Assembly (NCBI GenBank): GCA_963765675.1
Contig: CAVXXK010000001.1
Location: forward strand, 576,001 to 640,000
Reading direction: 5' to 3'
Source: an uncultured delta proteobacterium
GTDB taxonomy: Bacteria; Desulfobacterota; Binatia; Binatales; Binataceae
Length of the DNA stretch: 64,000 nucleotides
The position numbers and the translations under genes were made by a program. Every line of letters begins with the position of its first letter. Positions within the stretch are counted from its first letter, which is position 1. The notes below the pieces were generated by a model. The model was not told where the DNA came from, ran no database searches, and was given only the letters and a program-made list of their open reading frames with translations. This document shows positions 2,263 to 47,125 of this stretch, piece after piece.

Positions 2263-3417
2263 ATGGATTTTGGACTATCGTCCGAGCAGCAGCTTTTGCA
2301 GACAACCTTACGCGAATTCTCGACGCACGAGCTGCTGCCCGAATATCAATCGCGCGATCGCGACGCGGACCTGCCGCCGGCGCTGGTCAGCAAGCTCGGG
2401 GCGATGGGCCTGCTCGCGCCGATGGTGCCGGCTGCGCACGGCGGCTCGTCTCTGGATTTTGTCTCGCTCGGGATCGCGCACGAGGAAATCGCGCGCGGCG
2501 ATTTCAACGCGGCCTACGTTCTGCTGATTGCGGCTCTCGTCGGCTCGATCATCGCACGCAGTGGCGATGCGCGCCAACAGTCGGAGTACCTGCCGTCGAT
2601 CTGCCGCGGCGACGTGATCGCCGCGCTCGGCGTAACCGAACCCTCGGGCGGTTCCGACGCCGCGCACGTGAAGCTTTCAGCGCGCCGCGACGGCGACCAT
2701 TATATCCTCGACGGCGAGAAAACTTCGATTTCATTTTCCTCATCCGCCGCGACCGCTCTGGTAATGGCGCGCACCGGCACGCTCGAGCAGGGCGCGCACG
2801 GCGTCACCGCGTTCTATGTCGATCTCAACTCCTCGGGTGTCTCGCGCACGCGCTTTCGCGATCTCGGCTCGCGCGCGATCGGCCGCGGTTCGATTTTCTT
2901 CGACGCTGTTCGCGTGCCGGCCGCGGCGCGCGTAGGCGCCGAGGGCGCAGGCTTCGTCCAGGTGATGCAGGGCTTTGATTTCAGCCGCTCACTGATCGGC
3001 CTCATGTGTATCGGCGCGGCCGAGCAAAGTGTCGAGGAGACTTGCGCGTACGTTGCCGGGCGCGACGCGTTCGGCGGAAGCCTCGCGCGGTTCGAGGGCG
3101 TGTCGTTTCCGCTCGCCGAAGCCGCGGTCGAGCTGCGCGCCGCTCGATTGCTCTGCTACGAAGCGCTATGGCTTCGCGACCGCGGACAGCCGCACGGATG
3201 GATCGCGGCTGGCGCCAAGTGGCTCGCGCCGGAACTCTGCGCGCGCGTGCTGCATCAGTGCCTGCTCTTGCATGGGCACATGGGTTTCAGCCTCGAGCTG
3301 CCGCATCAGCAGCGGATGCGCGACGTGATCGGCCTCGAGATCGGCGACGGCACCGCGCAGATCATGAAACTCCTGGTGGCGCGAGAGATTATCGGCAAGG
3401 CGGCGCGGCCATACTGA
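2263..3417 (+). CDS. Acyl-CoA dehydrogenase (cyclohexanecarboxyl-CoA dehydrogenase-like)
   Basis: MDFGLSSEQ start, GVTEPSGGSDAA, GEKTSIS, RDVIGLEIGDGTAQIMK. Confidence 0.88.
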   Translation: MDFGLSSEQQLLQTTLREFSTHELLPEYQSRDRDADLPPALVSKLGAMGLLAPMVPAAHGGSSLDFVSLGIAHEEIARGDFNAAYVLLIAALVGSIIARSGDARQQSEYLPSICRGDVIAALGVTEPSGGSDAAHVKLSARRDGDHYILDGEKTSISFSSSAATALVMARTGTLEQGAHGVTAFYVDLNSSGVSRTRFRDLGSRAIGRGSIFFDAVRVPAAARVGAEGAGFVQVMQGFDFSRSLIGLMCIGAAEQSVEETCAYVAGRDAFGGSLARFEGVSFPLAEAAVELRAARLLCYEALWLRDRGQPHGWIAAGAKWLAPELCARVLHQCLLLHGHMGFSLELPHQQRMRDVIGLEIGDGTAQIMKLLVAREIIGKAARPY

Positions 3418-3424
3418 GGAACCG

Positions 3425-5846
3425 GTGATGGCGAACCGCCGATGGCCGATCTTGTGGAACGCGCGATGGATTTGGGCGCCGTCGAAGCGGCGGCGCGTCG
3501 CCGCGGTCGCCTCGAATCCGCTTCCTCCGCGCGAGACGTGGAACCGCTTCTGCTACCTGCGCAAATCGATCGACCTCGCGAGCGTTCCACGCTTCGGTTC
3601 CCGCGCGGGTAACCGCCGACTCGCGTTTCATCCTGTTCGTCAACGGAATCGAGGCAGCGCGCGGTCCCGCCCGCTCGACTCCGGCGCGCCTGGCATGGAC
3701 GGAGTTCGATCTCGCTCCGATGCTGATGCGCGGACGCAACACGATCGCGGCGCTGGTGAGATTTTACGGCGCACCGACGCCGTGGTGGATTCCCGCGCCC
3801 GCGAGCTTTACGCTCGGCTTCGGTTCGTTCGCCTTCGAAGCGCCCTCAATCGATCTGATTTCCGATCGAGACTGGAAAGCCGCGGACGCGCCCTACCGCC
3901 AGGACGTTCCTACACCGCCGATTCTGCCGCAGCCGCCACTTGAAATTCTTGACGGCGCGATGGTTCCGCGCGGATGGACCGGCGCCGACTTTGACGATTC
4001 GTCGTGGGAGAACGCGGCCGAGTTGATGGCGGCGACCTTCGCACCCAATCGCTTGCGGATTCCCGTCGAGCCCTACTCCGCGCCCGAGGCCGCCGATATA
4101 GCGCCGCTCACAACGATTCCAATCGGGTTCACCGAGATCGCGCGCCGCGCTCTGTCTTCTCTCGCAGGCGACGATCCGCTGACCGCCTATCCGGCTGTCG
4201 ACGCTCAACTCGGTACCGGCGCGGATGCGATCACCTATGACGCGGGCGCGATCACGCTCGCGACACCGTGGCTCGTGGTGCGCGGACCGTCCGGCTCGAT
4301 CGCCGACCTTTACGTGGGCGAGGATTTGCGGACCGACGGCAGCGCCGAAATCGCACCTCGATTTTACGCGACCCGCTACATCCTGGGCGGCCGCGAATCG
4401 GAACGCGTCGAAGGATTTGAAACGGTTGGTTTTCGATACTTGACCGTCGTCACGCGCGGTGGAGCGACGGTCGAATCCGCCGGTGCAATCGAGCGGCACT
4501 ACCCGCGCAGCGGCGATGCGCGCTTCGAATGCGACGATCTGCGCTTGAACAAAATCTGGCGAGTCGGGGCGCGCACGCTCGACCTGTGCTCGTCCGATGC
4601 ATTTATTGATTGCCCCGGCCGCGAGCAACGTGCATGGCTTGGCGATTCCTACATTCATGCGCTTCTCAGCTTTGTGACGAATTCCGATTGGCGGCTGGTG
4701 CGGCGTCATCTCCGAATCTGCGCGCATTCGGCGCGTACCGACGGATTGCTCGCGATGGTCGCGGCCGGCGATTTCGCAACTGCCTCGACCACGATTCCCG
4801 ATTACTCGCTGCATTGGGTTCGGGCGCTGGCGCGATATTTCGAATATTCTGGAGATTCCGATCTGATTCGCGAACTTGCGCCGGTGGCTCTGGGAGCCCT
4901 GGCCGCGTTCGAGCGCTATCGCGCTGACGACGGGCTGATACGCGGCATGCCCGGATGGATGTTCATCGACTGGGCGATGACCGAGCGGGCGGAAGTCACC
5001 GGCGCGATCGACGCACTCTACGCAGCCGCACTCGAAGACTTCGCCGTGCTCGCCGAGACCGCGCTCGGCGATACACGCGCGGCCGGCGACGCTCGCGCCC
5101 GCGCGCTTCGCACTCGCAACTCATTCGAGCTGCTCTGGGACGATCGCAGGGGCGTGTACGTTGATGCCGCCGATGCGAACGGACCGCGTCGGCGCGTGAG
5201 CCAGCAGACCAACGCGATCGCGATTGCGAGCGGATGTGCCCCGCGCGAGCGATGGCAACGAATCCTCGATTTTGTTCTCGACGAGTCGCGCCTGGTCGTG
5301 ACTCCGACCATCTCCGACAATCATGCCGCCTACATTGCGCAGCGGATGGATCCGGCCGAGTACTGCGAGTTCAGTCCGGAGAGAAACGTCGTCGCCGCGC
5401 AGCCCTTCTTTTCGCACGTTGTTCACGACGCGATCGTGCGCGCAGGCCGGCGCGATCTGCTCGCCGAGCGATGCCTCAAGTGGTGGCCGCAGATCGAGCG
5501 CGGCAACACCGCGTTCGAGGAGTATTGGAACGCGCGCTCCGGAACCGGCAGCCGCTGCCACGCATGGTCGGCAACTCCGACCTACGACCTGACCACGCAC
5601 GTGCTGGGAGTGCGTCCCTCAAAGCCGGGCTACGCTCAGGCGGAAATAGCACCGCTGTTCGGCGCGCTACGCCATCTCGAGGGCGCGGTCCCTACCCCCA
5701 AAGGGATCATCGAGGTCGCGCTTGATCGCGATCGCGGCGGCGAAGTGACGCTTCCGGACGGCGTCGATGCGATCGTCCGCTTCGACGACGCTCCACTGCG
5801 CGCCGCACGCCTCGGCGCGGGGCGTCATCGCATCGAACGCGCGTAA
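3425..5846 (+). CDS. GH78 alpha-L-rhamnosidase-like glycoside hydrolase, with a +1 frameshift near 3590
   Basis: The N-terminus (ARWIW...YLRKSIDL) joins VPARVTADSRFILFVNG after removing one base near 3590. Motifs DCPGREQRAWLGD, FIDW, SQQTNA and SRCHAWS are present. Confidence 0.8.
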
Positions 5847-5863
5847 TCGCGCGCTACGAAATT

Positions 5864-6641
5864 TCAGCGTGGCGCTTTGTCGATCAGATGCGCGGCGAAA
5901 CGCAGGCGGATGTAATCGGCGGTCCAGCGGCCGCGCTCGTCGCACAGAACCGGGCGCAACAGATCGATCGCTTCAGCTAGCGCCTTTTTTCTATCGGCAG
6001 GTTGTAGCGGCCGGAGAAAATTCTCGGCAAAGGTATCGAGCCATCCTTCAATCCCGGTCGGCAGCGGAGTAGGACGCGGAATGATGGCGAGATAATCGAC
6101 GGCAAAGCCGGCGCGCTCCAATCTTTCGCGGTAGTCGTCGGCGGTCGGAAAATACCACGGAATTTGAGCCGATCCGCTGATGCCGCGGCGCGCAAGCACC
6201 GCTTCGAGCGCGACGATTATCGCAGCTACGCATCCGTGTCCGCCGAACTCGCCGACGAATCTTCCGCCCGGCTTCAGCGCGCGCCCCACTCCGGCCAGCA
6301 CGCTGTCAGGCTCGCGCATCCAGTGCAGCGCCGCATTCGAGAACACCGCGTCGAATTCGGACTCGAACCGCAGCGACTGTCCGTTGACGACGTGTGCATC
6401 GAGACCGCGCGCGCGAGCTCCTGCTACCATCGCCTCGGACGCATCGACGCCCACGACGGCTCGCGCCTGCCGCCGCGACCTTTTCCGTCAACACGCCGTC
6501 TCCGCATCCGAGGTCGAGGATCCGCTCACCAGCGCGCGGCTGGAGCATCGCAAGCACCGGTTCGCCAAGGTCGCTAACGAACCTTGCATTGCGGTCGTAT
6601 GATTCAGGCTGCCAGGTGTTGAGTTGCTCTGGAGTACTCAT
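5864..6641 (-). CDS. Class I SAM-dependent methyltransferase, with a frameshift near 6459
   Basis: ILDLGCGDG lies in one frame and continues as VVGVDAS...FDAVFSNAALHW in the next. Confidence 0.85.
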
Positions 6642-6780
6642 TTCAGACGGACGCGGCGGCGGCTGCGCCTCTCTTCTTCGTATATGCGGCCTGATCGCGA
6701 GGCAAATCGCGCGCGCTTGCCGCCGCGCGCGAGTGCGAGTATTCCCTGCCTCACGAGGCGTACGCTTCGCGGAGGCGTCA

Positions 6781-7551
6781 ATGTTCATCGGAATCGATCA
6801 TGTCGTTATCGCGGTCGCTGATCTCGAGACCGCCATCGCGAGCTACGCTCACGCGGGATTCAGCGTCGTGCGCGGCGGCAAACATAATATCGGTACACAC
6901 AACGCGCTGATCGCATTTACCGACGGTTCATACATCGAGTTGATCGCATTCCTCAATCCTGTTCCCAGCCATCCATGGTTCAAGGCTCTCGAGCTCGGAG
7001 GCGGCGTGACCGACTTCTGCATGCGGACCGACGACCTTGAGGCCGACGTCGCAGCGTTGCGCCGTGCAGGCGCTGCGATTGGCGATCCGTCGGCGATGAC
7101 GCGCGACCGCCCCGACGGTTTCCGCCTGAGCTGGGTGCTCGCCATTCCGCAGCCTCCCTTCAGCGGGCAGTTGCCTTTCCTGATTAGGGACGAGACCCCG
7201 CGCGATGAGCGGGTTCCGCGCGAGCGATCACATCGCAACGGAATTCGCGGAATCGCACGAGTTACCGTCGCCGTCGAGAATCCCGCCGCGACCAGCAAAT
7301 ACTACGCGCGTGTGCTGGGACGTCCGGCTGCGCCGCGTCGACGCCTCGACCTGGATGCCTCGGGTGTGGCGTTCGTGATCGGTTCTTATGAAGTCGAACT
7401 GATGGCGCCGCGCAGCGAGCAAAGCCCACTCGCGCAGTGGCTTAAGGTGCGCGGGCCCTCGCTCTGGTCGGCGACCTTGGGTGCCGATGCGGGCGCGGGA
7501 AAGTTCAACGATACCGAACTGCTGCGCTCCGCGCGGCTCACGGTCGAATAA
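6781..7551 (+). CDS. VOC / glyoxalase-like family protein
   Basis: IDHVVIAVADL, GGKHNIGTHNALI, YIELI; GGAGG ribosome-binding site before ATG 6781. Confidence 0.85.
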   Translation: MFIGIDHVVIAVADLETAIASYAHAGFSVVRGGKHNIGTHNALIAFTDGSYIELIAFLNPVPSHPWFKALELGGGVTDFCMRTDDLEADVAALRRAGAAIGDPSAMTRDRPDGFRLSWVLAIPQPPFSGQLPFLIRDETPRDERVPRERSHRNGIRGIARVTVAVENPAATSKYYARVLGRPAAPRRRLDLDASGVAFVIGSYEVELMAPRSEQSPLAQWLKVRGPSLWSATLGADAGAGKFNDTELLRSARLTVE

Positions 7552-7573
7552 TCCAATCGAAGGACGCACCACG

Positions 7574-8548
7574 ATGGCGCAGCAGCAATTGAGCATCGGC
7601 TTCACGATCCCGCAGCGGGGCGTATTTTTTGGAATCTCAACCTGGCCCGAGATGATCGCGCTCGCCGCCGAAGCCGATCGCAATCCGCGCTTCGATTCGA
7701 TCTGGGTGGGCGACAGCGTGATGGCCAAGCCGCGGCCCGAATCGATCGCGCTGCTCGGCGCGCTGTCCTCGGCAACGCGGCGCGCAAAGCTCGGCGTCGG
7801 ATGTATGGCGAGCTTCCCGATTCGCGATCCGATTCTGTTCGCCTATCAGTGGTCCACACTCGATCTGATTTCGCAGGGACGGATGCTGCTCGCCGTGTGC
7901 ACGGGTATCGTCGCCGGCGGCGTGAGCGCGCGCGAGGGAGGAGTGTGGGGAATCACCGATGGCCAGCGCGGCAATCGGATGGCCGAGAGTATCGAAATCT
8001 GCCGTCGCCTCTGGACTGAAGACAATGTCAGCTTCGCGGGGAAGTATCGCTCGTTCTCGGGCGTGACGATAACCCCGCGACCGGTGCAGCGCCCGTGTCC
8101 GATCTGGATCGCGGCGAATCCGCCGCCGCAGATGGCGGAAAAGCCGCTGCGCCGCGTCGCGCAAATCGCCGACGGATGGATGACGGTGAACATCTTTCCG
8201 AAGCTCTTCGCCGCCAACTGGTCAAAGCTTGCGCAGTACTTGAAGGATGCGGGAAAGGATCCCGCCGCGTACCCAAACATCGCCTACCACAACATCAACA
8301 TAAATTCCGATCGCGATGCCGCGCTGGCGGAATCCAAACGCTTCCTGGACGAATACTACGGCCCGGTGTTCGCGCCGCCGATGGTCGAAGCCTGGACCGC
8401 CGCCGGCACGCCCGAGCAGTGCGCGGCCAGCCTGCGCGAACTTGCCAGCGATGGCGCAAAATCGATCACGCTGCGCATCACCGGATGGGATCAGGAAGGC
8501 CAGTACGAGCGACTGGTGAATGAAGTCCTGCCACGTGTTGATCTCTAG
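7574..8548 (+). CDS. LLM-class flavin-dependent oxidoreductase
   Basis: FDSIWVGDS, LDLISQGR, PRPVQRPCPIWIA, ADGW. Confidence 0.88.
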   Translation: MAQQQLSIGFTIPQRGVFFGISTWPEMIALAAEADRNPRFDSIWVGDSVMAKPRPESIALLGALSSATRRAKLGVGCMASFPIRDPILFAYQWSTLDLISQGRMLLAVCTGIVAGGVSAREGGVWGITDGQRGNRMAESIEICRRLWTEDNVSFAGKYRSFSGVTITPRPVQRPCPIWIAANPPPQMAEKPLRRVAQIADGWMTVNIFPKLFAANWSKLAQYLKDAGKDPAAYPNIAYHNININSDRDAALAESKRFLDEYYGPVFAPPMVEAWTAAGTPEQCAASLRELASDGAKSITLRITGWDQEGQYERLVNEVLPRVDL

Positions 8549-35111: not shown

Positions 35112-36117
35112 GTGCCTGAACCCACCCCCGCAAAATCCGAGGCGCAAGTCCGCGGCGAGCTGATCGCTCCGCCGATGCGGCGCCACGCATGGATCAATAT
35201 CGTCGGACCGCTGTGCGCGATCTTCCTGGGCGTCGCCGGCGCCGCGATCTACCTGAAGCCGATCGGCACGCTTAGGTGGATCCAGCAAACCCGCCTTGCC
35301 TGGTCCGGCGTCACCGAGAACGAAATCGCTCTCGACGACGGCCTGATGACTTACTACATCACCGGCGGCTATTGGGATCAGGATCCGGTGGTGATGGTCC
35401 ATGGGCTCGGCCCCAACGCGGCGCTGGTCTGGCGCGGTGTGATGAGTCCGATCGCCGACGCGCATTACAAGGTCGTCGCACCCAATCTGTACGGCTTCGC
35501 AGGATCGGAACATAAGCAGATCGATTACTCGATCGCGTACCAGGCCGGCGCGCTCGCGCAACTAATCGACAAGCTGAAGCTCGAGCATATCAACCTGGTC
35601 GGCTCCGACCTCGGCGCCGACGTCGCGCTTTACTACGCCGTCGATCATCCGGACAAAGTCGAGCGATTGATCCTCGTCTCAGGCGGGATGTTTGGCGCGG
35701 CGGGCGCTGCGCGCCTGCGCAAAGGGATGATTCCGACCACGCCTGACGCGCTCCAGGCCTATATCGCGCAGAGCTTTTTCGATTTGCCTCCGATGCCCGA
35801 TTTCATGAATCAGCGGATGCTCGCGGCGCTCGCCGACGACATGCCCGCGCAGACCGACATGCTGAACTCGGTGCCGAAAGACGAAGGCACATATCCGTTC
35901 CAAGATCGGGCAGATCTTCAATACGCTGACAATCATCCTGTGGGGCGCAAAAAATCCGTACTACACTACTCACGACGCGGAGGCTCTGCACGCAGCGCTG
36001 CCCGGCTCCGCGACGGTCGTTTTCAAAACCTCGGGACCGTTCCCCCAACTCGAGCATCCCGACGATTTCGCCGAGTCGGTGATCTTCATCGTCAAGCAAA
36101 CCGAAGGCGGCACCTGA
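35112..36117 (+). CDS. Membrane-anchored alpha/beta-fold hydrolase-like protein, with a frameshift near 35887
   Basis: VHGLG, PNLYGFAGS and LVGSDLG. After removing one G the frame continues IILWGAKNPY...SGPFPQLEHPDDF..V to the stop at 36117. Confidence 0.78.
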
Positions 36118-37176: not shown

Positions 37177-37698
37177 CTACCAGGGCAGGCCGCACAGATC
37201 GATCGGGCCGCCGGGCCATCCGCGCGCGGTCAGTTTCAGGATCATCGTGTCTTGGGGATAGGTGACGATTCCTGAGGGCTGCCAGAATCGAGTCGGACCG
37301 TCGACGTGAATCCATCCGGCTTTTTCGTATACCGGCGCGACTTTGCGCCGACAGATCAACAATCCAAATTCCGCGCCGAGCTTCGTGCGCATGAGGGCTT
37401 CAGCGGCACGCAGCATCGCGGTGGCGACGCCGCGCTTGCCGTATTCGGGCTTCGTTACGACGTTGCCGATTCCGGCAACTCGGACGCGTTGATCCGCGGC
37501 AGTCATCTCTCGCGTCACGACCTTCAGGCTGCCGACGAGAAGTCCCTCGATGCGGGCGGTCGCAAACCACTCGGCGGGCGCCCACTGATACGCGATGTGG
37601 CCGAAGACCTCGTCAGTCCAGCATTTGAGTTCGCCCTTCAATGCCGGAGCAATCTCGTCCGCGCTCTCGATGCGGACTTCGATCGCGTCTGATCCCAT
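37177..37698 (-). CDS. GNAT family N-acetyltransferase (AAC(2')-like)
   Basis: IGNVVTKPEYGKRGVA, YEKAGW, C-terminal IDLCGLPW. Confidence 0.85.
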   Translation of the reverse strand: MGSDAIEVRIESADEIAPALKGELKCWTDEVFGHIAYQWAPAEWFATARIEGLLVGSLKVVTREMTAADQRVRVAGIGNVVTKPEYGKRGVATAMLRAAEALMRTKLGAEFGLLICRRKVAPVYEKAGWIHVDGPTRFWQPSGIVTYPQDTMILKLTARGWPGGPIDLCGLPW

Positions 37699-37701
37699 CG
37701 G

Positions 37702-38649
37702 CTATTCTTTGCGCTTGGTGATCTTGTCGATCGCGGCGAGGTCGTCGGGCGTCATCTTCCAGCCGCACGCTTTGATATTTTCGCTGACCTGCTCGGGCTT
37801 GGTTGCGCCGGAAATCACGCTCGAGACCTCCGGCTGCGCAACCAGCCAGCTCGTCGCGAGATCGACCATCGAGTGGCCGGCGCCGCGCGCGTGCTGCTCG
37901 AGTTTTTCCAGCACGGCAAAGTTCGCATCGGAGAGCATCTGACCCGCCCGCGCGCCCATCGCACCGAGGCGCGTGTCTTTCGGCGGTTCCTGGCCGCGGC
38001 GATACTTGCCGGTCAGAAATCCGCTAGCGAGCGGAAAGTAAGGCAGAATCCCGACGCCAAAATGACGGCACGCGGGAATCAGCTCGCGCTCGACCCGGCG
38101 GTCGAGCAGGTTGTATTGGTTCTGCGCCGAGATGTACGGCGCGAGATCCTGCGCGCGCGAGATCCACGCCGCCTCCGCCACCTGCCATCCGGCGAAATTG
38201 CTCGAGCCGATGTAGCGAACCTTGCCCGCGCGCACTATCGCGTCGAGCGCGGCCAGAGTTTCCTCCTGCGGCGTCACCGGGTCGGGCGCGTGGATCTGGT
38301 AGAGATCGATATAGTCAGTCCCCAGGCGCCTAAGACTCGCCTCGACCGCCGCCATGATGTACCTGCGCGAGCCGCCTTTCTGGTACGGTCCATCGCCCAT
38401 CGCCATCCCGAATTTGCTCGCGACGATTATCTCGTGGCGGCGATTTCCGAGCGCCTTGCCCAGCATCTCCTCCGACTTGCCGCGTCCGCCGTAGATATCG
38501 GCGGTGTCGAACAGCGTGATGCCTTCGTCGAGGGCGCGGCCGACGACCGCGCGAGTCTGCTCGGCGTCGATCCGCATGCCGAAGTTGTTGCATCCGAGTC
38601 CCGCGATCGAAACCTGCAAGCCCGAATTCCCAAGTCTTCTGTATTCCAT
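37702..38649 (-). CDS. Aldo/keto reductase
   Basis: MEYRRLGNSGL, GLGCNNFG, FDTADIYG, SLRRLGTDYIDLYQIH, GKVRYIGSSN. Confidence 0.93.
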   Translation of the reverse strand: MEYRRLGNSGLQVSIAGLGCNNFGMRIDAEQTRAVVGRALDEGITLFDTADIYGGRGKSEEMLGKALGNRRHEIIVASKFGMAMGDGPYQKGGSRRYIMAAVEASLRRLGTDYIDLYQIHAPDPVTPQEETLAALDAIVRAGKVRYIGSSNFAGWQVAEAAWISRAQDLAPYISAQNQYNLLDRRVERELIPACRHFGVGILPYFPLASGFLTGKYRRGQEPPKDTRLGAMGARAGQMLSDANFAVLEKLEQHARGAGHSMVDLATSWLVAQPEVSSVISGATKPEQVSENIKACGWKMTPDDLAAIDKITKRKE

Positions 38650-38747: not shown

Positions 38748-39566
38748 ATGACTGCGAAATTGGAGAATGCCGCATCACCCGCCGAGCTGATCGATCTCGA
38801 GCGCTATCCGATTCTCGATCTCGCCAGCGCACGGGCGCGCGAGCTTGCCCGCGATTGCCGCGTTCAGCTTGATCGCACCGGCGCGTGCGAGCTGCCGGGT
38901 TTTATCAAATCCGATGCGGTCGCCGCTTTAGTGCGCGAGGCCGACGAGCTTGCGCGCCTCGCCTATCACAGCGTGGTCACCGGCACCGCTTATCTCGAAG
39001 CACCGGCGGCGTCCTGGCCGCCGGACCATCCGCGGCGTCATTACGATAAGACCTCGGTCGGCGTGGTCGCTTACGATCAGTTTCCGCCGCGCTCTCCGAT
39101 GCGCCGGCTGTTCGAGTTCGAGCCGCTGATGGAATTTATCGCGGCGGCGATCGGCAAGGACAAGCTCTACCGCTACGCCGACCCGATGGGCGCCCTCAAC
39201 CTTGCCGTGATGGGTGACGGCGAGCGGCTGCATTGGCATTACGATCAGACTGACTTCGTCACTTCGATCGCGCTGCGTCCGGCCGAGTTCGGCGGCGATT
39301 TCGAGTACGTGCCGCTCATCCGCAGCGCGAGTGACGAAAATTATCCGCGCGTCAAACGGCTGTTCGACGGAGACCCGGAAGGCGTCGTGCGCGTGCCGAT
39401 GCATCCGGGAACGCTCTTGCTGTTCGAGGGCCGCAACTCGATTCATCGCGTGACGCCGATTCGCGGCGCGACCACGCGCCTGGTCGCGCTGCTCGCATAC
39501 GACACCAGGCCCGACACGCGCAGCAGCAAGACGCTGCAGATGGCCCGCTATGGGCGGACCGCCTAA
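38748..39566 (+). CDS. 2-oxoglutarate/Fe(II)-dependent oxygenase, BesD/HalD-like fold with a hydroxylase-type HxD motif
   Basis: LHWHYD (HxD), GGDFEYVP, LLFEGRNSIHRVTP (distal His), and R in TTRLVA. Confidence 0.8.
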   Translation: MTAKLENAASPAELIDLERYPILDLASARARELARDCRVQLDRTGACELPGFIKSDAVAALVREADELARLAYHSVVTGTAYLEAPAASWPPDHPRRHYDKTSVGVVAYDQFPPRSPMRRLFEFEPLMEFIAAAIGKDKLYRYADPMGALNLAVMGDGERLHWHYDQTDFVTSIALRPAEFGGDFEYVPLIRSASDENYPRVKRLFDGDPEGVVRVPMHPGTLLLFEGRNSIHRVTPIRGATTRLVALLAYDTRPDTRSSKTLQMARYGRTA

Positions 39567-39606
39567 GCGCACGCGCAAAACCAAATTACGCTCGCGCAAT
39601 GCGCGG

Positions 39607-40829
39607 ATGCGCGTTGAGCGCGACCTGATCGGTGCGCTCGAAATCCCCGCGGCGGCGCTCTATGGAATTCAGACCTCGCGCGCGGCCGCAAATCTTTCTT
39701 TTTCGGGCCGCACGCTCGGCGACTATCCGTCGATGGTGCGCGGACTCGCGATGGTGAAGTGCGCGGCGGCGCGCGCGAATCTTGATGCCGACGTGATCGA
39801 CGCGAGAGTCGCGCGAGCGATCGAGCACGCCTGCCGCGCGCTATCGCCGGCGGCTATCGCGATCATCTGATCGCCGATCCGCTTGGCGGCGGCGGTGGTA
39901 TCGGGATCAATCAGAATGTCAACGAGGTCATCGCGAACCTCGCAAGCGAGCATCTTGGCGGCAGGCGGGGCGCAGACGCGATCGTGAGTCCGAAGACTCA
40001 CGTCAACGCGTCGCAATCGACCGCCGACGCATGCGCGACCGCGGCGCGAATCGCGATCCTCGAACAGGCGAGCGTGCTTGTCACCGCGCTCGGGGAATGC
40101 GTGCGCGCCTATCGAGCGAAAGCGCGCGAATTTCGCCGCGTGATCACGATCGCGCGCACCTGCCTGCAGGACGCGCAGCCAACTTCTCTCGGCGATTTTT
40201 TTTCCGGCCACGCCGCCGCGCTCGAGCGCCGCAGCGCTGACCTCGCTCGCAGGGTGCGCGAGCTTCGCCGCGTGAATCTCGGCGGCACGGTGATCGGCTC
40301 CGGCAGTGGCGCGCCGGCCGCATATCGGCGCGTAATTGTGCGCCGTCTGCGCGAGGTGACCGGACTCGATCTGATTGCGCGCACGAATCTTTTCGATGCC
40401 GCGCAGAATATCGACGACCTTGGCGCGGTCGCCGCCGCACTCGGGATGCTCGCCGAGGTGCTGCTCAAGCTCGCGCAGGATTTGCGCTTGCTCGCATCGG
40501 GACCCGGCGGCGGCTTCGGCGAAATCACTTTGCCTGCGGTCCAGGAAGGTTCATCGTTTTTCCCGGGCAAGATCAATCCGGTGGTTCCAGAGACGATGCT
40601 GCAATGCTGTTTCCAGGTGCTTGGACACGAACGCGCCGCGCGGCTTGCGCTCGAACGCGGCGAGTTGAATCTCAACGTGTTCGAAGGCGCCGCAGCGGTT
40701 AACCTGCTCGACGCGATTGGGATTCTCTCGCGCGCGGTTGCGCTATTTACCTCTCGATGTGTCGTCGGAATCAGGGCGAATGAAGACCGCTGCCGGGAGC
40801 TTGCGGCGCGCTCGCGGTTCAAAGCCTGA
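39607..40829 (+). CDS. Aspartase/class II fumarase superfamily lyase, atypical, with one base missing near 39842
   Basis: RVERDLIG..YGIQT.RA, NVNEVIAN, HVNASQST, RTCLQDA, NLGGT.IG, GSSFFPGKINP, GELNLNVF. Confidence 0.82.
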
Positions 40830-40992
40830 CCTGTCGATCAGGCGCTTTCCGAATCTAAAATCTTTTCATGGTCTGCGCACGCGATCGGACGCGCGTCTGC
40901 TTTTTGTGCGAGGAATGCAAAGCTCGTCAACGCCGCGCCGCTGGCATCCGCCTTGCTCTCTTCGAAGCAGAGACTAAGCGGAGGAATTCGAA

Positions 40993-42387: not shown

Positions 42388-45300
42388 TCATTTTGGCGTC
42401 TTGCCTGCGCCCTTCAGAGCTACACTCTGGCCAAAGGCCGGCTCGAGGTTATCCTTGATCATCAGGGTGCCTTCGTACTTGGTCGCCTGTGTCGGGGTGA
42501 AGGTCACCGAAACTTCGCAAGTGCCGGGCTTGACTCCTTTGGACCGCGGACCCAGATCGTCGTCATCGCAGGCCTGACTGATACTGAACGGGCTGGCCGC
42601 GCCGGATTCCGATTCGATCAGAATAGGCACGGGGTGTTTCTTTTTGGTGATCTTGCCGCGGTTGGTTATGTGGACCTCCTTGACCTTGCTCGATCCGACC
42701 TCGACGGTGCCGAAGTTGAGCGTCTTCGGCGCGACGCGAAGCTTGCCCGCGACCGGAGTCGGCGTCGCGGTTGGCGTGGCCGTGCGCGTGGGACCGGCCG
42801 CCGGCGCAACGACGTTGAAGCCCGTCGAGGCGTTCGACGCGACGTATTGCGAGGTTCCAGCGAAGCTTGCGCTGAGCGTCTTCGTTCCCGCGGCGCCAGT
42901 GCTCGCCGCGCAGGTCGCGATACCGCTCGCGTTGGTGGTCCCGCCGCAACTCGAGCCACCAAGCAAAAAGCTAATCGATTGGCCCTCGAGGGGAACTTGC
43001 GGATTGGAAGAGACATCGGTCAGCGATGCGACCAGATTAACCGACTGATTCGGCGATCCCGTGGTGGGGCTGGGATTGAGACTCATGAAGGTCACATCCT
43101 TCCCCGGTCCCCAGGTAACCACCGCTTGATTTGAGGTAACGGTCGTGTCGGCGAGCGCCGCCGCCGCGGTAATCGTATCGACGCCCTGATGGGTAGCCAC
43201 GTAGGTAAAGGACGCCTGACCGCTCGAGTTGGTCAAACCCTGTTGGGTCTGAGGATTTGCGCCCGTCACAAAGAATTGGACGGAAGTGCCCGTCGGCACT
43301 GTGGCGTAGTGGAACGTCGCGGTGAAGGTCTGTCCCGTGCCCTGCGCCGGGCTGGGCACAACCGTTGCCGGGCTCAGCACCAGCGACGCGGCCGGATTTG
43401 CCGCTGCGTAATTACATCCACCGCTCGCGTCGGTGATCCTGAAAACGCCGACGCCTTGTCCCGCGTAGAGGCACCCATCAGGTCCGGGCACTATTACCCA
43501 AGCGGTTCCCTTGGAGATCAGATTCGTACCGACGCTCGGCGGCGTGGTGGTCAAATCCACCTGACTGGTGCCGATCGGAGCGGTCCCGACGGCCGGCGGC
43601 GCGAGGGTCAGAAATTGAGCGTCGCCGTTTCCCTGTACCCCCTGCGCGAAGAGCCCGAGATTATTCATCGTGACGCCGGAAAGCAGCGTGACCACCGGAG
43701 TAGGCGGACCGTCGGTGCCGGTAACCTGGGCAACGCCGCCGTCCGACCAGACATACATTGTTCCGTTCGGCGTGAAACTGATGTTGGCGTTCGGAGTATT
43801 CGGCAGTTGAGCATAAACGGAAACCGTAGGCGACGCGCCCGATGGATCCGAGATACGCCACAGATCGGTGTTATCCGATCCCGCGCCGCTGCATGAATCT
43901 CCTACAAACAAATCTCCGCTCAGCGGATCGATCGAGATAAAAGAGGGGCAGGTAAGGTTCGACGCCACATTCCGGATTACCGCCCCGGTCGAAGGATCGA
44001 TCTGCAGCACTGCCCCGGTGTTGAAACCTCCCGTAGTGGCGCTTCGCCCGGCGTAGAGGTTTCCGCCCGAGTCCACCGCCAGGCCGAACACAGCCGGTCC
44101 AATCGGTGTCGGCGTGACGAGCGTGCTGGCGCCGGCGGCGCCGCCACCGGGAGGAATTTTGTAGATATTCCCGGTTGACGCTTCGGATACGTAAAGATTC
44201 CCCGACGAGTCGAACGCCAAACCGCCCACCCCCGGGCATCCGCCAAAGTTGACATCACCGTAGAAGAAATTGGCGGCAAGGACGCCGTTCACATAGGTGT
44301 TGGCCAGAAATCCCGGCGCCGGGACCGGATTGCCGTTGCCGCATCCGTTTTCAGGTCCATTGACGAATTGAACCGTTCCAGTCTCAGGGAACGGCAGATT
44401 GCCGTCGGTCGCGTCCACCGCGGAATAGGTTACCGTCTCCGGAACTTGGTCGGTCGCGGTGAACACCACAATCCCGCTACTGTTGGTCACACTGGGATTC
44501 GGTCCCACAATCGCGGAACTACCCGTGCCCTGGGTCAAGTTGATCAGCTTGCCGGGTGTCGGACGTCCCAGAGAGTCCGTGAGGGTAATCGTAATCGTGG
44601 TCGTGGTTACGCCGTCGGCGGTGACCGAATTGGGGAACGCGTTCAGCCCGGCCGACGCTGCGGGTGGCGTCACGAATGCGAGTGACGGTTGCGCGGCGAG
44701 CGGCACGCCGTCGCTGGTGTCAGTCGCAGTGAGAGTGACGCTCTCTGCGGTCAAGTCGGTGACCTGGAACGTCACATTGCCGTTCGAGTCTGAGACCCCG
44801 CTCGCCGGCGAGATCTGGGCACTTCCGGTCGCGGTTAGCGTAACGGATTTCCCAGCCACCGGGATGCCGTTGCTATCGTACAACGATACCAGGGTCAGTG
44901 CGGCCGTCGTGCCGTCATTGGGCTCGCCGATAGGGCCGATCGCGCCGGCAGGCTGCACACCGTTTTGCAGGTACGGCGCAACCGCGGACGCGGACGCGCT
45001 GACCGACCCGGGCGATTGCATTGTCAACGCGCTGTAGAGCTCGCTCAGATCGGGAGAGCCCAATCCGACGTGAGTGAAATCGCTACCCAGCGACGCCGCG
45101 TTGTGGAAAGCCGCGGTGGCCGAGAGCGAATAAAGTTCGGGATTGAAGAATCCCACATTCTGGCCCACCCCCTGATTGAGCAGCGCCGTATATGCGGCCC
45201 ACTCCGGAGCAGCGAGGCTGGTTCCACCGTACTGCAGCCCGTTAGGACATCCGCCGTTATCCGCCTGGCAGATCTGAACACCATGGAACGGATCGGCGTT

Positions 45301-46884
45301 CGCAACCACATCGGGAACCATTCGCATGCTCGAGCCTGTCAGTACGTGTTGATAGCTCGGGGCTGCAAAAAACTTGCTGGTGCCGAATCCGCCCTGTCCT
45401 GCCGGCGGCGTGGTGTTCGCGTCGTTCCACCAGGTTTCGGTGCCGTAAGTGAAGCCGGGACCCGGCGTAAGTGAACTACCGCCGACCGCGGTCGCATTGG
45501 GAGAGTCCGCCGGAACGGCCACTGTGTTCGGGCTGCCGTCGAGGCAGGTGCTGCCGCTATCTCCGGAGCCGTTGAAGATGGTGATGTTGGATGCGGCGGC
45601 ATTCTGAAAGATCGTGTCGATGCTGTCGACGTCGGCGGCGGTGGTCTGGTCCTCGCAATAGGCCCAACTGTTACTGATGATCGAAACGCCATCGTTGATC
45701 ATCTTGTTGAAGACGGCCTGGAAACTGCTCCCGGCGCCGCCGAATGGCGCGTCGTAAACTACCACCTTGGCTCCGGGCGCGACCGCCGTCACCGCGTCGA
45801 TATCGAGCAGCACCTCGTCCTCGCCGGAACCGATTGTGGCGCCGCCGTTAACATTCACCTCGCTGATATTATTGATCTGGGTGTCCGGCGCTCCGATCAA
45901 AGCAAGAAAATCGGTGACATCGCTCATATTGAAATTGTCGAACTCAACCAATCCAACCGTCTGGCCGGTACCATCGACGGATTGCCACGGGGAGGCCGGA
46001 TCAGAGGCCGGGATGGAGCCGTTGCCCTTATGCTGCGCCGATGTAAGTTCGATCTGAGGCGGTGACAGAGAGGGCGATGGCGATGTTGAGTTGCAGACAT
46101 TGGGTACGGGAAGGCGACGGCTATATCCGGCCGCTGCTGCTTGTGTGTTGAAGCAGACCGCGAGGTCTTTGAGAAAACATGCCCGATACGCGGCGGGGTC
46201 GTTAATCGTACCGATCGCCTGGATGGAAGCGATGACAGCGCAAACCGCAAGAAATAACGCCTCCCGCTCCGGCTTTGGCGCGGCGTAACTCGAGAGGCCG
46301 CTGATAGCCAGCACCCGCGAGGCGATCGTTTCAGGCAGCGCGGGGGCGGCTTGATTCGCAAAAAAACTTTGCTTTCCGATTCGATAGTCGCCGATATTCA
46401 CGTCGAACGCGCGCTCGGCGTCGCCGCGCGTGCCGGCGACGGTTATCGTCAGCCGATTCTTTGAGCCCTCGATCAGGCGAAATCCGTTCGCGCGCAAATA
46501 GGCGAGCACCGAGTCGTAATCATCGCGGCTGGGTCCGAACCGATCTGCGATTTGCCGCTGGGTAAGATAGTGATGGAAATTTTTCGAATGCGGATCGCGA
46601 AGTTCTTTAAGATAGATGTCGAATGCCGATTGTTTATCGCGCCGGAGCACAATCGTCAGCGTTATCGGCTGGGCGTCTTCTTTCGCCAGATGTGACTTGT
46701 TGCCCGGCGTCGAAATCGCGGTTGCCTCCGACAATACCGGCAGCACATGTCCCGGCAGCCGAACCATCGCAGTGGTTGTACGCGTATCGGTACCAGGCAT
46801 CGCAGATGAAACGGCGGCTTGAGCAGGCGGTACAATAATCAACAACAATGGTAAGAGCAGGGCCGACTTAATCCAGCGATACAT
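42388..46884 (-). CDS. Secreted multidomain S53 (sedolisin/kumamolisin) protease: signal peptide, pro-domain, catalytic domain, invasin-type Ig domains, beta-propeller, C-terminal ASH/Ig-like domain
   Basis: Pro-domain YLT..Q...RFGPS; catalytic EVLLD, ISNSW, SGDSG, PDV, GGTSLAAP; repeated GxSDSNG.VTF Ig units; GLAFD/GLAVD blades; P.TLNFG.V..G and CEVSVTFTP. Confidence 0.88.
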   Translation of the reverse strand: MYRWIKSALLLPLLLIIVPPAQAAVSSAMPGTDTRTTTAMVRLPGHVLPVLSEATAISTPGNKSHLAKEDAQPITLTIVLRRDKQSAFDIYLKELRDPHSKNFHHYLTQRQIADRFGPSRDDYDSVLAYLRANGFRLIEGSKNRLTITVAGTRGDAERAFDVNIGDYRIGKQSFFANQAAPALPETIASRVLAISGLSSYAAPKPEREALFLAVCAVIASIQAIGTINDPAAYRACFLKDLAVCFNTQAAAAGYSRRLPVPNVCNSTSPSPSLSPPQIELTSAQHKGNGSIPASDPASPWQSVDGTGQTVGLVEFDNFNMSDVTDFLALIGAPDTQINNISEVNVNGGATIGSGEDEVLLDIDAVTAVAPGAKVVVYDAPFGGAGSSFQAVFNKMINDGVSIISNSWAYCEDQTTAADVDSIDTIFQNAAASNITIFNGSGDSGSTCLDGSPNTVAVPADSPNATAVGGSSLTPGPGFTYGTETWWNDANTTPPAGQGGFGTSKFFAAPSYQHVLTGSSMRMVPDVVANADPFHGVQICQADNGGCPNGLQYGGTSLAAPEWAAYTALLNQGVGQNVGFFNPELYSLSATAAFHNAASLGSDFTHVGLGSPDLSELYSALTMQSPGSVSASASAVAPYLQNGVQPAGAIGPIGEPNDGTTAALTLVSLYDSNGIPVAGKSVTLTATGSAQISPASGVSDSNGNVTFQVTDLTAESVTLTATDTSDGVPLAAQPSLAFVTPPAASAGLNAFPNSVTADGVTTTTITITLTDSLGRPTPGKLINLTQGTGSSAIVGPNPSVTNSSGIVVFTATDQVPETVTYSAVDATDGNLPFPETGTVQFVNGPENGCGNGNPVPAPGFLANTYVNGVLAANFFYGDVNFGGCPGVGGLAFDSSGNLYVSEASTGNIYKIPPGGGAAGASTLVTPTPIGPAVFGLAVDSGGNLYAGRSATTGGFNTGAVLQIDPSTGAVIRNVASNLTCPSFISIDPLSGDLFVGDSCSGAGSDNTDLWRISDPSGASPTVSVYAQLPNTPNANISFTPNGTMYVWSDGGVAQVTGTDGPPTPVVTLLSGVTMNNLGLFAQGVQGNGDAQFLTLAPPAVGTAPIGTSQVDLTTTPPSVGTNLISKGTAWVIVPGPDGCLYAGQGVGVFRITDASGGCNYAAANPAASLVLSPATVVPSPAQGTGQTFTATFHYATVPTGTSVQFFVTGANPQTQQGLTNSSGQASFTYVATHQGVDTITAAAALADTTVTSNQAVVTWGPGKDVTFMSLNPSPTTGSPNQSVNLVASLTDVSSNPQVPLEGQSISFLLGGSSCGGTTNASGIATCAASTGAAGTKTLSASFAGTSQYVASNASTGFNVVAPAAGPTRTATPTATPTPVAGKLRVAPKTLNFGTVEVGSSKVKEVHITNRGKITKKKHPVPILIESESGAASPFSISQACDDDDLGPRSKGVKPGTCEVSVTFTPTQATKYEGTLMIKDNLEPAFGQSVALKGAGKTPK

Positions 46885-47125
46885 TTGCTTCCCCCCTGAC
46901 TGGTGGTCTCGAGCGATTGCTACTGACAACCGGATCAAGCCTCTCTCGCGAAAACACTGTTGGCTCATCAAACTTGGTCAGCTCCAGGAATTGCGTAAGA
47001 CCGCATCTGTATCGCGGAGATACTTAACGTCGCAACGGAACAACGTGAAATTGAAGGGTACAAATCGCGTGGGCGCAAATTTTCACCCACGTCGCAATCT
47101 GGCTATTGGCGAATTAAGGTTCGGC

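Follow-up and report, generated by a model that had tools for sequence, protein, structure and literature searches.

The window analysed here is a stretch of 64,000 nucleotides (nt) from the genome of an uncultured delta proteobacterium (4.5 Mb in 16 contigs), the close homologues being labelled by their sources as Candidatus Binataceae or Binatus. On its forward strand lie two adjoining genes, one for an Fe(II)/2-oxoglutarate (2OG) oxygenase of the HalD/BesD family and the other for a lyase with the aspartase fold. Together, they form a conserved, translationally coupled and probably catabolic two-gene module, which is widely distributed and uncharacterised. Its parts are as follows (aa, amino acids; ORF, open reading frame).

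38748-39566, + strand: Fe(II)/2-oxoglutarate hydroxylase of the HalD/BesD family, 272 aa, from the ORF and the Pfam HalD match; H164-x-D166...H233
39550-39566, + strand: overlap of the oxygenase stop with the lyase start, 17 nt, ATGGGCGGACCGCCTAA
39550-39842, + strand: 5' part of the lyase gene in frame 1, from the conserved ATG that overlaps the oxygenase stop (ORF 39550/39607-39870)
39841-39843, + strand: frameshift site, one base short against the relatives in the DNA alignment (GCT-AT versus GCTTAT/GCTGAT)
39843-40829, + strand: 3' part of the lyase gene in frame 3 (ORF 39786-40829), with the Lyase_1 domain, a stop at 40827-40829 and no domain 3; it holds all the active-site motifs, GGGGGIGINQN, SQSTAD, RTCLQDA and GSSFFPGKINP

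The lyase start and the broken reading frame

The original prediction, made from the letters of the window alone, had set the two genes 40 nt apart. This spacing did not hold, as the ATG at 39607 is poorly kept. In an alignment of six same-genus sequences, it is ATG in only two rows (the window and the relative G009), ACG in three and GTG in one, whereas the ATG at 39550, within the last codons of the oxygenase (ATGGGCGGACCGCCTAA), is invariant. The wider comparison drew on 80 loci from GTDB species genomes, of which three non-Bacillota loci begin inside the lyase. In 41 of the 47 co-oriented loci, two of the five Obscuribacterales loci included, and also in the window, the lyase frame begins with an ATG placed 17 nt ahead of where the oxygenase stop ends. 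Among the remaining six, three loci are broken or truncated, two Obscuribacterales loci have the genes overlapping by 4 nt, and one has them 8 nt apart. Such an overlap of stop and start implies translational coupling.

The lyase frame of the window is interrupted, and a check of this frameshift together with an alignment to the aspartase AspB had been recommended at the outset. The DNA alignment of the window with five same-genus relatives reveals exactly one lost base, at ~39842, and the alignment to AspB, described below, is gapless. The lyases of the relatives are intact (407-426 aa, 87-91% identical) and match the 5' part over its residues q1-98 at 82-87% identity.

The missing base is probably an assembly error rather than a sign of gene death. 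About 4 kb from the lyase break, the alpha/beta-hydrolase gene at 35112-36114 is also frameshifted (~35878-35885). This hydrolase is intact in four relatives, whose 334-346-aa proteins match q1-258 in frame 3 and q256-334 in frame 1. Elsewhere, the lyase is broken in four loci (L048, L055, L058 and L096) and the oxygenase is split in four (L033, L048, L053 and L058); all of these are among the 25 'MFD...bin' contig_N assemblies, and none is among the other 55 of the 80 loci. Breaks at varied places in these large-contig metagenome-assembled genomes (MAGs), which are judged from their contig sizes to be long-read assemblies, suggest indel errors of such assemblies. Further, the window was compared with six relatives by the ratio of non-synonymous to synonymous substitution rates (dN/dS), which is 0.13-0.37 upstream of the break and 0.12-0.23 downstream of it. 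The oxygenase and both lyase halves fall within 0.12-0.37 in the six comparisons, which is the mark of purifying selection. A public contig that is 97% alike (run X2), from a related strain and not from the source of the window, also has one more G after position 39842. The public contigs over the locus come from related strains only and leave 39565-39800 uncovered. If the deletion were real, the window's copy would be a true pseudogene and the module non-functional in this organism. The deletion does stand in the assembly, outside any long homopolymer, yet the nearby second frameshift, the confinement of independent breaks in both genes to one type of assembly, the low dN/dS on either side and the extra base in the related contig make such a pseudogene rather unlikely. 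As a separate observation, frame breaks or shortened ORFs of the oxygenase or lyase, at differing places, occur in the six loci named above (L033, L048, L053, L055, L058, L096) and also in L062 and L063.

A lyase clade with replaced leaving-group ligands

The 3' piece of the lyase matches Pfam Lyase_1 (PF00206) with an E value of 9.7e-58 and the 5' piece matches it weakly, while no Pfam match to FumaraseC_C (PF10415) was found in the window's lyase. The 3' piece aligns without gaps to residues 82-405 of AspB (1j3u), so that residue n of the piece is AspB n+80, and AspB numbering is used hereafter. The protein ends at about AspB residue 409 of 468, that is, before domain 3, as had been foreseen. 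The active-site motifs read G96-G-G-G-G-I101-G102-I-N-Q105-N, S140-T141-A142-D, R-T187-C188-L-Q-D and G-S318-S319-F320-F321-P-G-K324-I-N326-P, the last of which agrees with the superfamily's SS-loop signature GSSxxPxKxN that bears the catalytic serine. Enzymes of this superfamily are homotetramers with composite active sites; an AlphaFold2 (AF2) model of the monomer has the expected Lyase_1 fold, with the Ser loop disordered.

The roles of these residues are known from AspB. According to the available excerpt of PMC11744663, S318 is the base, the amine is contacted by N142 and H188, and the walls of the alpha-carboxylate pocket include T187, M321, K324 and N326. The same excerpt places domain 3 of a neighbouring subunit alongside the Ser loop, whose open state it stabilises. 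Going by the alignment, the window's lyase keeps the catalytic Ser loop and both carboxylate-binding sets, and the retention of S140/T141, T187, S318/S319, K324 and N326 claimed in the original prediction is thereby upheld. What differs lies at the leaving group. T101, which we take to be an amine ligand, is replaced by I, N142 by A and H188 by C, and the I320/M321 of the signature loop have become F320/F321, again as had been noted earlier. In the literature searched, no text dealt with T101, N142 and H188 of aspartases together.

The states of these positions were counted in 189 family sequences, made up of 120 homologue proteins and 69 locus ORFs of at least 395 aa. The latter were taken from 77 clustered locus ORFs by leaving out eight shorter ones, and five full-length paralogues are included. 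The counts are given below.

Position 101: I 174, F 7, V 4, T 3, L 1
Position 142: A 153, S 27, N 5, T 4
Position 188: C 188, S 1
Position 320: F 102, I 86, M 1
Position 321: F 163, Y 20, M 5, L 1
S140, T187, S318, K324 and N326: each 189 of 189

F or Y thus occupies position 321 in 183 of the 189. The observation made in the original prediction is confirmed well above chance, as its residues are conserved across the family; its interpretation, discussed in the next sections, is partly supported.

A wider search was made in 1.84 billion representatives of 50%-identity clusters. It gave 956 matches at E<=1e-30, and the best 150 were examined for a signature defined as A/S/T/G142, C188 and F/Y321. 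The signature is present in 38 of the 150, and all the catalytic residues are kept in these; I101 is found in 36 of the 38, and F or Y at 320 in every one. The tail after K324 has a median length of 92 aa (74-154) in the 38 representatives against 142.5 aa in the other 112. Among the latter, T101 is found in 99 and N142 in 102, while position 188 is H in 35, C in 33, Q in 33 and E in 8. Thus, of the three amine-ligand replacements first proposed, those at 101 and 142 mark the clade, but C188 is not distinctive, since 33 of the 112 non-signature representatives also have it. Under strict criteria, the positions that separate the clade are 101, 231, 320 and 321, with 142 close behind. A FastTree phylogeny of 149 rows puts 38 of the 39 labelled rows into a single clade with 40 rows (SH-like support 99), the other two of which are fragments without the Ser loop. 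The lyase therefore belongs to a distinct monophyletic clade in the aspartase branch of the aspartase/fumarase superfamily. The substitutions are marks of this clade and not decay, because the 38 representatives share them with all catalytic residues kept and with a short C-terminus. Their conservation, which had been set beforehand as the refuting test, holds in the 189 sequences. Read against AspB, the clade has its predicted polar leaving-group ligands replaced (T101 by I, and N142 by A or S), I320/M321 exchanged for F/F(Y) and most of the C-terminal domain 3 lost.

It may be asked whether such a protein is not still an aspartase or fumarase that acts on L-aspartate or L-malate, its non-essential residues having drifted and its domain 3 having been dispensable. 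Every catalytic and carboxylate-binding residue is indeed kept, the family members are annotated by JGI as aspartate ammonia-lyase, and an intact orthologue is 40-45% identical to aspartases, which are also its best matches in the PDB (E 1e-89). Against this, two residues counted among the amine contacts of AspB are replaced clade-wide, while 99 (T101) and 102 (N142) of the 112 non-signature relatives keep them. Moreover, the lyase scores below every NCBIfam cut-off: 433 against 510 for the aspartase model NF008909, 380 against 681 for TIGR00839 and 292 against 665 for the fumC model TIGR00979. The window's genome also encodes, apart from this lyase, a full-length class II homologue (488 aa). 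Similarly, in four Bacillota loci (L068, L069, L073 and L074), a full-length paralogue with FumaraseC_C (471-476 aa, for example L069 12122-13543) follows the zinc alcohol dehydrogenase (Zn-ADH) in the operon of the short lyase; in L069, L073 and L074, it has N142, IM and C188, and in L068 the motif at 142 was unmatched. Taken together, a drifted aspartase or fumarase seems very improbable, and the earlier view that the enzyme is neither a canonical aspartase nor a canonical fumarase agrees with these scores.

The length of the C-terminus also varies within the family. From the SS motif to the end, the lyases paired with an oxygenase have 90-109 aa and the Bacillota lyases without one have 122-145 aa, a difference that is confounded with phylogeny. 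No fusion of oxygenase and lyase was seen among the representatives; the fusions that occur are mostly of ordinary full-length aspartases with unrelated domains. Two distant relatives, P0132 (711 aa) and P0174 (878 aa), are alpha/beta-hydrolase-Lyase_1 and malic enzyme-Lyase_1 fusions, without a FumaraseC_C match and with the ordinary N142 and M321.

The oxygenase and the gene neighbourhood

The Pfam HalD model (PF23169) matches the oxygenase at 41.9 bits against a gathering cut-off of 26, and the Atlas clusters for this protein are 100% PF23169. Direct sequence matches with solved Hal/BesD enzymes are marginal (E at least 0.03). The AF2 model (pLDDT 89.7), on the other hand, finds Hal/BesD entries in all of its top 15 Foldseek matches with a probability of 1.00, and those at the top are HalB, the BesD hydroxylase homologue 7jsd, HalD, BesD and HalA (TM 0.63-0.74, with 0.67-0.74 for the first three; identity 15-19%). 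All 12 orthologues compared, from three phyla, share H164-Y-D166 and H233. In pairwise alignment, D166 stands where the halogenases have Gly, the halogenase subtype being marked by Gly or Ala instead of the metal-binding Asp. Such an Asp-containing triad points to a hydroxylase-type member and not a halogenase. On this basis, the protein is classed as the hydroxylase subtype of the HalD/BesD family, and the BesD-like oxygenase with an HxD motif that had been predicted is borne out. A predicted complex of the oxygenase with the lyase scored 0.01.

The pairing of the two genes, for which synteny elsewhere had been suggested as a check, is well kept. In a search of 30 relatives' genomes (one of them, G010, unpublished), with a strong lyase match taken as E<=1e-130, the lyase and oxygenase are adjacent in G002, G003, G005-G010 and G018, and G001 has the pair at a contig end, which makes 10 of the 10 lyase-bearing genomes. 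At this level, G004 (86% complete) and the 19 genomes of other genera gave no match to either gene. Among the 80 loci, the oxygenase lies next to the lyase in 48, which are all of the 48 non-Bacillota loci with upstream sequence: 42 Binatia-type MAGs, five Obscuribacterales and one Pseudomonadota MAG. The pair is thus syntenic in three phyla. No oxygenase was found near the lyase in the 29 Bacillota loci, nor anywhere in five of five whole Bacillota genomes that hold the lyase, a set of genomes that includes no positive control. This absence fits a replacement of the oxygenase by alcohol dehydrogenases (ADHs) in Bacillota.

Mostly outside the Binatia, the lyase has further partners. An aldehyde dehydrogenase (ALDH, 495-515 aa) lies directly downstream of the lyase in 28 of the 29 Bacillota loci, in all five Obscuribacterales loci and in the Binatia locus L088, and a Zn-ADH comes next after it in 22 of the 29 Bacillota loci. 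The best NCBIfam models for the ALDH are those of betaine-aldehyde dehydrogenase (BADH), with 537 bits against a cut-off of 669, and the Fe-ADH of some operons has the choline dehydrogenase GbsB as its best model (224 against 550); both are to be read as likeness and not as assignment. Transporters of the OpuAC-type ABC class occur in 13 of the 29 Bacillota loci, BCCT carriers in eight and MFS carriers in eight. Further genes seen in some operons are a second, AldA-like ALDH, a malic enzyme, regulators of the IclR or AraC type, and a Cache/PAS kinase together with a sigma-54 regulator and one more OpuAC protein. The Pseudomonadota MAG (L101) has, divergent from the lyase, a string of four minus-strand genes: an ALDH (6438-7910), the oxygenase (5574-6419), an ABC ATPase (4831-5577) and an OpuAC-permease fusion (3290-4810). 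The ALDH of this string is 58% identical to that of Obscuribacterales.

Could the module work in the opposite direction, with the lyase adding an amine or other nucleophile to fumarate and the oxygenase hydroxylating the product to an aminopolycarboxylate-type or opine-like metabolite? The reactions of the superfamily are reversible and some of its members are biosynthetic, as stated in the excerpts of PMC13411527 and PMC9706529, and the Binatia pair stands alone, without catabolic partners or transporters. The partners in four lineages are nevertheless of the catabolic type, namely uptake systems, dehydrogenases, IclR/AraC/sigma-54 regulators and malic enzyme, and no ligase, nonribosomal peptide synthetase or exporter was found clustered with the pair. 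A biosynthetic role is therefore considered improbable.

The window itself has other neighbours around the module, which are listed here.

35112-36114, + strand: alpha/beta-hydrolase, with a glutathione S-transferase (GST), beyond the AKR-GNAT pair and further upstream
37177-37698, - strand: GCN5-related N-acetyltransferase (GNAT), ~1 kb upstream, divergent from the oxygenase-lyase pair
37702-38649, - strand: aldo-keto reductase (AKR), upstream, divergent from the oxygenase-lyase pair
Downstream, - strand: a dual-specificity phosphatase, an AlgH-like protein and a 1527-aa protein

The AKR-GNAT pair had been singled out in the original prediction as divergent from the module; it is so in the window, but it adjoins the module only in L022-L027, that is, in the window's genus. 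None of the window's GNAT, AKR, GST and phosphatase has an equivalog in NCBIfam, the best for the GNAT being weak AAC(2') matches. The GNAT bears on another possible function, in which the lyase would split succinated thiols, S-(2-succino)cysteine or its N-acetyl form, into fumarate and a thiol, with the GNAT as the acetyltransferase. A precedent is 2SL, a lyase of class I that works with the GNAT YxeL (PMC9706529, excerpt), and a thioether leaving group would also suit a pocket that makes no hydrogen bonds; in the window, the GNAT does lie 1 kb upstream. In comparison with a yxe-type locus (YxeL GNAT, YxeP, YxeMNO), the annotated neighbour clusters show only this genus-restricted GNAT, with its weak AAC(2') matches, and neither a YxeP-type deacetylase nor a YxeMNO-type amino-acid transporter. 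The conserved partners are, instead, the oxygenase, the BADH-like ALDH and the betaine-type carriers. Such a thioether lyase is accordingly rated no higher than the biosynthetic alternative.

The other Binatia neighbours vary and include esterase-like, PNPOx-like and epimerase genes, MlaE, and an agmatine deiminase with a CN-hydrolase. In two MAGs, L050 (5040-7106) and L051, the last two genes, the former of the agmatine-deiminase type (PAD_porph), immediately precede the pair and point to a putrescine-pathway neighbourhood there. In two Obscuribacterales loci, a protein of 358-387 aa without a Pfam match is seen upstream of the oxygenase: L092 (310-1386, directly) and L099 (1086-2249, ~4.8 kb away with three genes between). 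Further downstream in the window, the 1527-aa ORF (42388-46971, - strand) has a signal-like N-terminus and long Thr/Ser/Gly-rich repeats, and its relatives at 62-76% identity make it conserved yet divergent. A scan of the window for promoters and terminators gave counts at chance level, with one hairpin followed by a T-run at 40879-40905.

Proposed function and relation to known systems

The function that we tentatively favour, at somewhat less than an even chance, is a fumarate-forming C-N elimination from a fully N-alkylated (betaine-type) aspartate, the substrate being made by the oxygenase or an ADH together with the ALDH. The residues that bind succinate and abstract the C3 proton are kept, while the hydrogen-bond partners of the leaving group are lost, aromatic residues are gained on the closing loop and the loop-flanking domain is gone. 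These changes point to a bulkier leaving group that does not form hydrogen bonds. That carriers of the betaine family occur in two unrelated lineages suggests a substrate with a quaternary ammonium or, possibly, a sulfonium group. The constant ALDH, the mutual replacement of oxygenase and ADH and the presence of malic enzyme, in turn, are suggestive of an aldehyde as the shared intermediate, with its acid as the substrate of the lyase. The malic enzyme of some operons would handle the C4-dicarboxylate product. A bulkier, non-hydrogen-bonding leaving group with a coupled oxidation step had been envisaged in the original prediction, and the gene context is consistent with it.

From this, we infer a substrate and an order of steps. 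The starting compound would be of the betaine type, such as homoserine betaine or a relative substituted at C4, and would be oxidised at C4 to the aldehyde by the oxygenase, or by alcohol dehydrogenases instead in Bacillota. The BADH-like ALDH would then make the dicarboxylate, and the lyase would cleave it to fumarate by the usual anti beta-elimination of the superfamily. Its substrate would be a 2-substituted succinate with a leaving group incapable of hydrogen bonding, most likely a betaine-type aspartate such as N,N,N-trimethylaspartate, from which a tertiary amine would be released. Homoserine betaine is the head group of the betaine lipid diacylglyceryltrimethylhomoserine (DGTS) and an osmolyte of Trichodesmium. 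It is also described as a natural solute in the available part of bioRxiv 10.1101/2021.03.10.434842. In its most specific form, the proposal would make the clade a trimethylamine-releasing 'aspartate-betaine lyase', with homoserine betaine passing through the aldehyde and N,N,N-trimethylaspartate to fumarate and trimethylamine, and with a BesD-type hydroxylase in place of the ADH in Binatia and Obscuribacterales. In this full detail, the scheme is improbable.

Several points weigh against the betaine-type aspartate as substrate. The assignment is drawn from sequence and gene context. Neither aspartate betaine nor trimethylaspartate is mentioned in the literature searched, and the proposed intermediate is hypothetical; this literature also gave nothing linking trimethylamine, fumarate, aspartase and betaine, and no pathway for homoserine betaine catabolism. 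The Binatia pair, that of the window included, has neither a transporter nor an ALDH in its cluster. A search of the window's genome for the ALDH of the pathway gave a best match of only 47% identity, in an uninformative neighbourhood (SDR, hydrolase, MobA-like, MutS and glycine cleavage P). The Bacillota lyases mostly have S142 and a C-terminus ~30-40 aa longer, so the substrate may differ there, and some Bacillota operons have an enolase-superfamily neighbour, nearest to acid-sugar dehydratases, which the model does not explain. The carriers are also less specific than they may appear, as OpuAC and BCCT carriers take sulfonium and other solutes as well. As for the oxygenase, the solved HalD/BesD-family structures that it matched hold lysine or ornithine. 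Those enzymes act on the side chains of free amino acids such as these, and no member of the family is known to have a betaine substrate.

The enzymes in the aspartase/fumarase superfamily share one mechanism and serve many leaving groups, and each new one (nitrite, thiols, hydrazines) has opened a pathway and provided a biocatalyst. If the substrate of the clade is a quaternary amine, the C-N lyase chemistry would be a new one for betaines, and trimethylamine and fumarate would be reached by a new route. If trimethylamine is indeed released, the clade would be a new biological source of this compound in soils, peat and waters, and would account for an undescribed catabolism of homoserine betaine. 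The clade is large, as it takes in 38 of the 150 nearest clusters at 50% identity and metagenomic proteins by the hundreds, and it is sharply delimited. It also occurs in cultured Bacillota (Viridibacillus arvi DSM 16317, Fictibacillus nanhaiensis, Peribacillus, Cohnella and Paenibacillus), and the hypothesis is thus directly testable.

Among the known systems, several enzymes eliminate other groups from 2-substituted succinates: the nitrosuccinate lyase CreD, the argininosuccinate (ASL) and adenylosuccinate (ADSL) lyases and FlcB/FlcC release nitrite, a guanidino or purine nitrogen, or a thiol (PMC13411527, excerpt). The same excerpt gives CreD as 18% identical to AspB. CreD, ASL, ADSL and FlcB/FlcC are full-length and far more distant from the lyase, on which the ASL, ADSL and CMLE models score 33-57 bits. 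2SL, which likewise releases fumarate with a non-amine leaving group, is a precedent for finding leaving groups via gene context (PMC9706529, excerpt). The two differ in their surroundings: the yxe loci of 2SL hold a GNAT together with an M20 deacetylase and an ABC transporter for amino acids, whereas the partners of the present clade are the 2OG oxygenase, the BADH-like ALDH and carriers of the betaine type.

The oxygenase shares its Pfam family, fold, 2-His metal site and 2OG-dependent core with the BesD/HalA-D halogenases and their hydroxylase homologues (6nie, 7u6h, 7u6j, 7jsd). It differs from them by its low identity of 15-19% and by the overlap of its gene with the lyase gene by 17 nt; its HxD is that of the hydroxylases, the halogenases having Gly. 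Among the literature matches listed, no paper treats BesD together with an aspartase-type lyase. FumC belongs to the same superfamily branch as the lyase (E ~1e-69) and has the same carboxylate and Ser-loop residues. The lyase lacks the T/N/H set common to FumC and aspartase as well as FumaraseC_C, and it reaches only 292 of the 665 bits of the fumC cut-off.

The closest solved relatives are AspB of Bacillus sp. YM55-1 (1j3u/3r6v) and AspA (E 5e-87). The lyase has in common with AspB the Lyase_1 fold, the GSSxxPGKxNP Ser loop, S140/T141, T187, K324 and N326. It differs by T101I, N142A, A231V, the change of I320/M321 to F/F and the absence of ~59 C-terminal residues, which make up domain 3. An engineered truncation of AspB to 401 residues is present in the PDB (3r6y), and no description of a natural short clade was found. 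The clade offers a natural loss of domain 3, the very part that in AspB borders the catalytic loop and has an influence on whether this loop stands open or closed.

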